Positions 33,140 through 33,619 of a stretch of 64,000 nt of DNA are shown piece after piece. Within the stretch, counting starts at the first letter, position 1, and each line of letters opens with the position of its first letter. The notes under the pieces were generated by a model, which ran no database searches, had not been told where the DNA came from, and was given only the letters and a program-made list of their open reading frames with translations. A program made the translations under genes and the position numbers. This DNA comes from Corallococcus coralloides DSM 2259 (GTDB lineage: Bacteria > Myxococcota > Myxococcia > Myxococcales > Myxococcaceae), in the NCBI RefSeq assembly GCF_000255295.1, contig NC_017030.1, positions 6,166,328 through 6,230,327 on the forward strand, given 5' to 3'.

Positions 33140-33382
33140 GGCACACCTGCTCGCGGGGGTGGGGTTCGGCCGCGAGACATTGCGAGCCCCATGCCGTCAC
33201 CGCTCCGCCCTGGAACGGCCCCGAACCGCTCCGGACTGGAACGGACCCTCGCTCCATTCTGGTGTCCGGTGTTCCAGTCTGGTGCGCCCGTCGAGCTTGG
33301 AACGTTGCTCGGCGTCTGTTCGAATGCACTCTGTGCGCGGGCAGGGATGTTCCTGCCCGATGGCACTCCCCCCGGAGGAAGC

Positions 33383-33619
33383 ATGAAGGCATCGCGACTG
33401 AAGCAGATGGTTCCTGGATTCGCGCTGATCATCGGCATCATGGCGGGCACGGCCCTGGCCATGGTTCCGGGCTCGACGGCGGAGACGACCGAAACTCAGG
33501 TGGGCCCTACCCCTGTCCAGAAGATCTGTTCGGCCAGCTGCAAGCCGTGCTCGGTCCAGGCGCACTGTGGCCAGGGCGAGGGCTCCTGCGGGATCTGGCG
33601 CTGCACCAACCCGATGTAG
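33383..33619 (+). CDS. Small secreted Cys-rich peptide (78 aa)
   Basis: A GGAGGA ribosome-binding site lies 4 nt upstream of the ATG. There is a signal-like N-terminus, MVPGFALIIGIMAGTALAMV. The mature part contains 6 Cys, SASCKPCSVQAHCGQGEGSCGIWRC. Confidence 0.45.
   Translation: MKASRLKQMVPGFALIIGIMAGTALAMVPGSTAETTETQVGPTPVQKICSASCKPCSVQAHCGQGEGSCGIWRCTNPM

Follow-up and report, generated by a model that had tools for sequence, protein, structure and literature searches.

A candidate sigma-54 control region for an MVP homolog, and a separable gene for a small Cys-rich peptide, in a Corallococcus coralloides spacer

Does the short spacer between the gene of a bacterial MVP homolog and a divergently oriented small open reading frame (ORF) act as one control region for both? 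The question is raised by a 64-kb stretch of Corallococcus coralloides DSM 2259 (contig NC_017030.1), hereafter the window, in which all coordinates are positions; it is high-GC myxobacterial DNA whose proteins have their closest relatives in Corallococcus. An initial annotation had noticed four copies of TGGAAC, three direct and one inverted, upstream of MVP, and had proposed that a Cys-rich secreted peptide encoded by the small ORF could be a co-regulated partner of MVP. To our knowledge, neither the timing nor the purpose of MVP production in bacteria has been established, and the literature that we found on bacterial MVPs makes no mention of promoters or gene context. Based on sequence comparison with related loci, we consider it probable that the spacer consists of two back-to-back expression modules, a sigma-54-type control region belonging to MVP and an independent unit belonging to the peptide, rather than of a shared divergent control region. 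The genes and repeats concerned are:

30863..33139, minus strand: MVP homolog of 758 amino acids (aa), with the Pfam domains Vault, Vault_2, Vault_3, Vault_4 and MVP_shoulder (E-values from 4e-06 down to 3e-45)
33211-33216, plus strand: exact TGGAAC, copy 1
33237-33242, plus strand: exact TGGAAC, copy 2
33271-33276, minus strand: exact TGGAAC, copy 3
33298-33303, plus strand: exact TGGAAC, copy 4
33383..33619, plus strand: 78-aa pre-peptide MKASRLKQMVPGFALIIGIMAGTALAMVPGSTAETTETQVGPTPVQKICSASCKPCSVQAHCGQGEGSCGIWRCTNPM

The spacer extends from 33140 to 33382 and measures 243 bp, as previously described. The four hexamers were found within 93 bp in the expected orientations, at positions shifted by 1–8 bp from those first given. 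Their cluster is non-random: TGGAAC occurs 39 times in the whole 64-kb window against 20.6 expected, and four copies within 100 bp appeared in none of 300 first-order Markov simulations of 64 kb each, in which the largest cluster contained three copies and was seen once. The hexamers are embedded in longer repeats, namely a 24-nt direct repeat (ACCGCTCCGsmCTGGAACGGmCCC) at 33199 and 33225, and an inverted repeat (CGCTCCGGACTGGAAC / GTTCCAGTCTGGTGCG). The exact hexamer survives in just 5–6 of 16 Corallococcus loci per copy. What stood of the idea that these repeats form a control motif is that they look regulatory, are non-random and have conserved dyad cores; they are not, however, one motif in four copies, as copies 1–3 appear to be dyad half-sites in the MVP module and copy 4 part of the peptide promoter module.

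The evidence for two modules came from a BLAST comparison of 33100-33700 with the MVP and peptide loci that we fetched, the MVP sample comprising 26 loci from GTDB species genomes. Module A (33140 to ~33287, the matching segment starting at 33100) lies upstream of MVP in every Corallococcus locus, at 73–91% identity, with or without the peptide, and module B (~33293-33675) is restricted to loci that have the peptide. The modules adjoin each other directly in the window and in loci L002 and L020, whereas in L003-L006 inserts of ~100 to 870 bp lie between them. No peptide was found at the MVP flank in nine Corallococcus-type loci (L007-L011, L023-L025 and L029); such peptide-less flanks variously carry GDSL-type lipase genes, a LysR-like gene or no strong ORF. 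In a single assembly of C. praedator CA031B, MVP lies on contig RAWI01000010 (L009) and the peptide on RAWI01000067 (L034), among AHH/Imm11 and PAAR-type toxin cassettes, where it retains a ~95-bp upstream block despite the location of MVP on the other contig. The two genes are also on different contigs in the metagenome-assembled genome (MAG) PMG_225. In the MVP loci of Hyalangium, Archangium and Vitiosangium, the dyad array described below is conserved and no peptide match was detected within the 4-kb flank. Across eight peptide contexts the neighbours differ (MVP, adh_short, MarR, Exo_endo_phos/PAAR toxins, a 622-aa protein and RidA/permease), and in the most distant context examined (L001) the peptide is paired with a short-chain dehydrogenase. 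As no neighbour recurs, the peptide gene is a stand-alone accessory gene in a variable island rather than a conserved MVP partner. Small Cys-rich peptides were indeed found next to MVP in other genomes, the two being adjacent in six fetched Corallococcus loci, but not at the nine flanks above; with modules separable by inserts and the genes unlinked in C. praedator, the proposed co-regulated partnership was not sustained.

Module A contains a candidate promoter for MVP:

33181..33195, minus strand: -24/-12 sigma-54 type promoter GGCATG-GGGC-TCGCA for MVP, proposed from pattern and conservation

The element (cGGCATGgggcTCGCA) presents GG and GC exactly 10 bp apart, the arrangement used here to recognise sigma-54 promoters, and fits the sigma-54 consensus yTGGCACGrnnnTTGCw (PMC12754779). 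The corresponding pattern GGCAYGNNNNTNGCA (GGCAYG-N4-TNGCA) has its sole window match at this position, and occurs exactly once per locus, on the MVP strand, in 26 of 26 MVP loci, with one base different in L008. These loci belong to at least four named genera (Corallococcus, Hyalangium, Archangium and Vitiosangium) and to several MAGs. In the 22 loci with a full upstream flank the pattern starts 42–73 bp before the MVP match. Read in the MVP orientation, the Corallococcus loci have in common GGCA(C/T)G-N4-T(C/G)GCAATG, as do those of the other three genera and the MAGs, and the GG and GC dinucleotides are invariant in cross-locus alignments. No sigma-70-like promoter was detected in a promoter scan of 32900-34000. 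We infer that MVP is sigma-54 dependent, with a predicted transcription start near 33170 on the minus strand and a 5' untranslated region of ~31 nt.

Upstream of this promoter, the conserved units are 11-bp dyads of the form TCCR-N3-TGGW, not TGGAAC. Numbered from a start site taken 12 nt downstream of the -12 GC and read on the plus strand of the window, they are, from the promoter outwards:

33204..33214: dyad S4, TCCGCCCTGGA, centre ~-39, containing TGGAAC copy 1
33230..33240: dyad S3, TCCGGACTGGA, centre ~-65, containing TGGAAC copy 2
33253..33263: dyad S2, TCCATTCTGGT, centre ~-88, missed by the initial annotation
33273..33283: dyad S1, TCCAGTCTGGT, centre ~-108, overlapping the inverted TGGAAC copy 3

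The pattern TCCRNNNTGGW occurs 18 times in the window, where 7.2 are expected, and four of these matches, upstream of MVP, lie on one strand in a span of 80 bp. Two other dyad pairs, with starts at 365/425 and 23875/23905, were treated as chance, the second lying within a coding region. Among the 16 Corallococcus loci, the CC-N5-GG core is kept in 15 for S1, in all 16 for S2, in 15 for S3 and in 9 for S4, the least conserved of the four. Equivalents in the other genera (Archangiaceae-type loci) are found at -118 to -120 for S1, -98 to -100 for S2 and -75 to -77 for S3, so that the dyad centres at -108/-88/-65/-39 in Corallococcus correspond to -119/-99/-76/-39 in those loci. The S1-S2-S3 spacing of 20 + 23 bp is kept in all genera in which all three sites were detected, and the distal three-dyad block stands exactly 11 bp, or one helical turn, further out in the Archangiaceae-type loci. 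Such a shift keeps the same helix face relative to the promoter, as expected of an activator acting by looping. In the Archangiaceae-type loci the dyads are often perfect palindromes, for example CGCTCCAG-T-CTGGAGCG in L016. The array thus has at least two dyad-symmetric sites within -60 to -150 in helical phasing, the features sought in an NtrC-type enhancer. Taken together, TGGAAC copies 1–3 most likely represent half-sites within a conserved sigma-54 enhancer that serves the gene of the bacterial vault protein. An enhancer-binding protein (EBP) would bind the dyads.

Arrangements of this kind have been described at other myxobacterial promoters. The sigma-54 promoter of katB in Myxococcus xanthus is preceded by three tandem CACCG-n6-CGGTG repeats, to which PexR binds (PMC12754779), and NmpR binds paired GCGCA-N5-TGCGC sites (PMC11841059); as at MVP, a -24/-12 promoter is preceded by tandem interrupted palindromes. 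Those systems likewise belong to high-GC myxobacteria, and their arrays bind an NtrC-family EBP. The MVP array differs from them in its half-site sequence and in having an MVP homolog as its presumed target. The enteric NtrC consensus at glnAp2 is TGCACCA-N3-TGGTGCA. With it the MVP array shares the core CCA-N3-TGG, the dyad symmetry with a 3-bp centre and the presence of multiple sites upstream of a sigma-54 promoter; S1 of L016 reads GCGCCA-GGG-TGGCGC and S1 of the window has a TGGTGC half, whereas the flanks of the window dyads differ. As myxobacteria encode dozens of EBPs, the dyads are not assignable to NtrC or to any particular EBP.

In the mechanism that we propose, RNA polymerase containing sigma-54 (RpoN) would bind the -24/-12 element at 33181-33195 on the minus strand, and transcription near 33170 would start only after remodelling by an ATP-dependent NtrC-family EBP. 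This activator would most likely assemble on the dyads at ~-108, -88 and -65 and on the weaker one at -39, TGGAAC copies 1–3 forming the right-hand half-sites of S4, S3 and S1. A signal would thus turn on MVP expression by way of an activator whose gene lies outside this region of the genome. If this is true, MVP is inducible and its trigger could be traced through the EBP that binds TCCA-N3-TGGA. A phased three-dyad enhancer with a sigma-54 promoter, present in several genera, would in that case offer a concrete handle on the regulation of bacterial MVP.

Module B carries a different set of elements around the peptide gene:

33297..33325, plus strand: candidate peptide promoter, in a conserved block
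33297-33302, plus strand: -35-like TTGGAA, overlapping TGGAAC copy 4 and followed by a 17-nt spacer
33317-33325, plus strand: putative extended -10, TG-n-TCGAAT
33338..33359, plus strand: GC-rich hairpin or dyad CGGGCAGG-GATGTT-CCTGCCCG, within what is presumably the 5' leader of the peptide transcript
33374..33379, plus strand: Shine-Dalgarno GGAGGA, read from the sequence
33644..33673, plus strand: intrinsic-terminator-like hairpin (33644-33669, 11 pairs) followed by TTTT, after the stop codon of the ORF

Upstream of the peptide, 8 Corallococcus loci keep the block CTTGGAT..GGCGTCTGTTCGAATGC; one of them is L034, which has no MVP nearby. TGGAAC copy 4 is the window variant of a conserved TTGGAT, orthologs reading TGGATC, TGGATT or other variants. 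These data point to a weak sigma-70-type promoter for the peptide, with a predicted start near 33332 on the plus strand. A sigma-54 promoter for this gene was considered and rejected, as TGGAAC-G-TTGC and a TGGCAC-N5 near the ribosome-binding site are, by inspection, wrongly spaced. Regarding the leader hairpin, 85% of cells are paired across the 8 orthologs and two pairs are changed on both sides; RNAalifold did not recover the hairpin from the peptide leader, a manual structure gave weak covariation, and an Rfam scan of 32900-34000 with E up to 1 returned no match. The GGAGGA is found in 7 of the 8 Corallococcus orthologs, and L034 reads AGAGGA. Module B would therefore be self-contained, with a weak sigma-70 extended -10 promoter, a leader hairpin, a GGAGGA site and its own terminator.

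Several observations weigh against this explanation of the spacer. The lone match to the promoter pattern is non-significant in itself, with 0.48 expected per window and at least one in 39 of 100 shuffles, so that the argument for a sigma-54 promoter rests on positional conservation. No EBP gene was found in the 64-kb window by a search for GAFTGA/AAA+ signatures, nor in the window or the fetched MVP flanks by tblastn with the NtrC central domain. The dyad at -39 is too near the promoter for a classical upstream activating sequence and is poorly conserved, and a comparison of the repeats with known regulator sites, as had been suggested, showed that TCCR-N3-TGGW matches neither the PexR nor the NmpR site. 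On the peptide side, just 8 of the 12 consensus positions agree in the promoter, which has no A at -10 position 2 and escaped the promoter scan, and the leader hairpin has weak statistics, with a folding z-score of just -0.75. Both the lack of a nearby EBP gene and the overlap of the -39 dyad with the region of the sigma-54 holoenzyme would suit a different reading. In it, the dyads would be occupied by a nucleoid protein or by a regulator of the conventional type (repressor or activator), a sigma-70 promoter that escaped recognition would drive MVP, and the -24/-12 match would be some other conserved element, such as an operator or a portion of a leader. This is unlikely in our view, given that from genus to genus the GG-N10-GC spacing and its flanks (GGCACG / T.GCA) stay the same and the four intervening bases change, which is the signature of a -24/-12 element, that the promoter scan offered no sigma-70-like alternative, and that the 11-bp shift of the three-dyad block keeps the helix face.

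Two further readings take the TGGAAC copies themselves as the functional units. GGAAC is the hallmark -35 core of extracytoplasmic function (ECF) sigma factors, and the motifs could be such -35 elements, copy 4 (GGAAC-N16-TCGAA, 33299-33324) being RpoE-like and driving the peptide under envelope stress. The TCGAA located 16 nt after GGAAC (33299-33303) does resemble the E. coli sigma-E -10 sequence TCnaA, and TCGAAT is kept in 7 of 8 Corallococcus orthologs; the AAC part of the core, however, is unconserved, with GGATC or GGATT in most orthologs, and copies 1–3 have, by inspection, no plausible -10 at 16–17 nt downstream on either strand. The conserved TG that directly precedes TCGAAT is better explained by an extended -10 sigma-70 promoter, and we regard ECF control as quite improbable. 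Alternatively, the four copies could be sites for one regulator in a bidirectional region, with MVP and the peptide as co-regulated functional partners. The modules abut in the window and likewise in L002 and L020. With 14 bp from the end of S1 to the -35-like element of the peptide, a protein bound at S1 could influence the peptide promoter in those strains, and the adjacency of both genes in six fetched Corallococcus loci points in the same direction. Nevertheless, copy 4 is not conserved in orthologs, inserts separate the modules in L003-L006, nine Corallococcus-type MVP flanks have no peptide, the genes occupy separate contigs in C. praedator and MAG PMG_225, and the dyads are conserved in the three other genera where no peptide match lies in the 4-kb flank. 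Co-regulation is thus very improbable, and appears already largely refuted by the comparative data.

The small ORF at 33383-33619 is a genuine conserved gene for a small protein. Its GC content by codon position is 0.53, 0.57 and 0.85 for positions 1, 2 and 3, and across the homologs the third-position value (GC3) is 0.82–0.90, against ~0.55 at positions 1 and 2. Pairwise ratios of nonsynonymous to synonymous substitution rates (dN/dS) among homologs are mostly 0.24–0.7. Thirteen Corallococcus homologs have 73–82 aa and 63–95% identity, and a profile search of 1.84 billion cluster representatives gave eight clusters, six of which are distant peptides (P0014-P0019) with 36–49% identity. The ORF with its GGAGGA, signal-like N-terminus and six C-terminal Cys was therefore recovered as initially described, with GC3, conservation and its own terminator in its support. 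The six Cys are located at residues 49, 53, 56, 62, 69 and 74; all of them and G67 are invariant in an alignment of 20 sequences, and the framework C-x3-C-x2-C-x5-C-x6-C-x4-C is found in nearly all 20 members. The C-terminal domain follows the pattern I-C-S-x-S-C-K-P-C-x5-C-G-x3-G-S-C-G-x-W-R-C, and in the AlphaFold (AF2) model the predicted local distance difference test score (pLDDT) is ~89–90 for the blocks covering residues 51–70 and 64.8 overall.

The precursor is laid out as an export signal or anchor (residues 1 to ~26–33), a variable acidic linker and the Cys-rich C-terminal domain. By inspection, the N-terminus reads MKASRLKQ, followed by 19–20 hydrophobic residues and then by ALA|M or STA|E. 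The export segment is well conserved (MKxSRLK..PG.ALIIG..AG.ALAMVP) and the linker is hypervariable, with insertions of up to ~21 alignment columns in distant members. Conservation of this degree, with invariant glycines at 12, 18 and 22, is not what cleaved signal peptides usually show, and hints at a membrane anchor or at a dedicated processing step. In the reading that we favour, the 78-aa precursor would be exported through Sec with cleavage of its signal peptide, and the six Cys of the 26-residue domain would presumably form three disulfides outside the cytoplasm. The peptide would most likely act as an extracellular effector, that is, a toxin, an antimicrobial or a signal.

The peptide was compared with known classes of small Cys-rich peptides. 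The published bacterial cis-defensins comprise 74 sequences in five classes, many of them from Corallococcus, and all end in CxC. The peptide is similar to them in being a small Corallococcus/Myxococcaceae product with a putative signal peptide, six Cys, CxxxC (C49-C53) and GxC (G67-S-C69), and an acidic N-terminal tail such as that of some classes. However, all 20 family members have C69-x4-C74 in place of the final CxC, the loop lengths differ, and the strings SCKPC and WRC are not in the supplementary sequence tables of the cis-defensin paper. No defensin-like fold or any other PDB structural match was obtained for the peptide. Assignment to the CS-alpha-beta cis-defensins was rejected, as the peptide has no terminal CxC and no structural similarity to known defensins. 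Like the knottins (inhibitor cystine knots), it has six Cys in ~26 residues and is apparently secreted, and its best Foldseek match is a cystine-knot peptide (8sdm_Y), with a non-significant E of 8.4; its loop lengths of 3-2-5-6-4 are unlike those of typical knottins. A SCIFF/ranthipeptide, that is, a six-Cys precursor of ~45 aa without a signal peptide, was also rejected because of the apparent hydrophobic export signal and the lack of a radical-SAM neighbour. Neither the peptide nor its distant members matched Pfam or NCBIfam, the best hit of a PDB sequence profile was 1wvk with a non-significant E of 0.31, and tblastn of the peptide against plasmids gave no match.

The initial annotation had considered this product a disulfide-knotted secreted peptide or one resembling a bacteriocin or a ribosomally synthesized and post-translationally modified peptide (RiPP). 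Of these descriptions, a putative N-terminal export signal and the compact six-Cys domain were retained. The small size, the six Cys and the CxxxCxxC spacing would also be compatible with the precursor of a RiPP or bacteriocin whose maturation depends on enzymes of its own, such as those of radical-SAM thioether formation in SCIFF/ranthipeptides. Since no radical-SAM enzyme, protease, ATP-binding cassette (ABC) exporter or immunity gene recurs in the eight contexts, and since the N-terminus resembles a Sec signal rather than a RiPP leader, we find such a precursor extremely improbable. A more serious competitor, to which we still give much less credit than to secretion, is that the small protein is bitopic and is retained in the inner membrane, with an uncleaved N-terminal anchor and a periplasmic Cys-rich domain that possibly binds a metal or a partner. 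The hydrophobic stretch is indeed long (~19–20 residues), and its G12, G18 and G22 (GxxxG) are invariant down to 36% identity, beside the hypervariable linker, so that an uncleaved membrane anchor fits as well as a signal peptide. Against an anchor speak the AXA-type cleavage motifs that persist behind the helix (ALA|M; in distant members, ASA|E or ASA|A) and the succession of a conserved pre-region, a variable acidic pro-region and a Cys-rich mature domain, which is the layout of secreted toxin and defensin precursors. Together with the invariant glycines, two other facts count against our account of the peptide: some dN/dS values are near 1 (1.12 for the window and L003, 0.93 for the window and L001), and no structural or family match hints at a function for the peptide.

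The secreted-effector reading would add to the myxobacterial cysteine-rich secreted peptides a small unannotated family outside the five published defensin classes. A bolder proposal, which we advance with considerable doubt, is that the peptide founds an unrecognised family of gene-encoded three-disulfide mini-proteins with a new Cys framework and an unusually conserved pre-region, exported by predatory myxobacteria as a weapon or signal and moving between variable islands with polymorphic toxin cassettes, and that, independently of this, the sigma-54 enhancer makes MVP inducible. In any case, the comparative result averts a false lead, as the peptide is not to be pursued as a vault partner. 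Neither module would be new in kind, one being an EBP/sigma-54 control region and the other encoding a small secreted Cys-rich peptide, and current expectations are left intact.

Regarding relatives of the peptide elsewhere, P0017 is a 92-aa distant paralog encoded at 5001-5279 of L035 (assembly RAVY01, whose prefix suggests Corallococcus), in a context of LysR, RidA and an amino-acid permease. In MAG PMG_225, directly downstream of P0016, L033 encodes at 6344-6577 a 77-aa lipoprotein with four C-terminal Cys (ISCDAQGRCPVNFYCSATWTC), and small Cys-rich exported genes may cluster. In C. aberystwythensis (L025, 2956-2988), a 33-bp match (88%) to the peptide terminator hairpin lies ~1 kb upstream of MVP, with no peptide gene there; it could be what is left of a peptide module that was lost, or else a similar terminator belonging to a different gene.

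The stretch between MVP and a conserved pair formed by an RdgC-like gene and a 268-aa gene is a variable island, as seen by comparing 33290-35400 with L002-L010, L023-L025 and L029. Depending on the species it contains the peptide, the peptide with a toxin/immunity pair, duplicated GDSL-type secreted lipases (FGDSLSDNG), a LysR regulator or QRPTase/ValRS. In the window, 33690-34619 holds a lipoprotein gene (lipobox LFVFSAC) whose DUF6310 domain is interrupted by an in-frame TAG at 34458-34460, with positions 2–74 of the Pfam profile before the TAG and 77–126 after it, in the same frame. Its final TGA overlaps the ATG of the next gene, a DUF5953 gene (ATGA, 34616-34619), and this lipoprotein/DUF5953 patch is visibly lower in GC. 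The arrangement resembles a polymorphic lipoprotein toxin next to its immunity gene, either decayed to a pseudogene or relying on read-through.

As for MVP itself, the homolog is 85–98% identical to those of Corallococcus, Hyalangium, Archangium and Vitiosangium; between Corallococcus and the other three genera the protein keeps 85–87% identity, which is very high across genera. Myxococcus is absent among the 26 MVP loci, in a scan that reaches close relatives only. Just downstream of MVP, a gene with an HmuY domain contains a 42-bp tandem repeat at 30437-30539 (2.5 copies, 98% matches), which encodes repeats of the TDAGTGGETDAGTE type.

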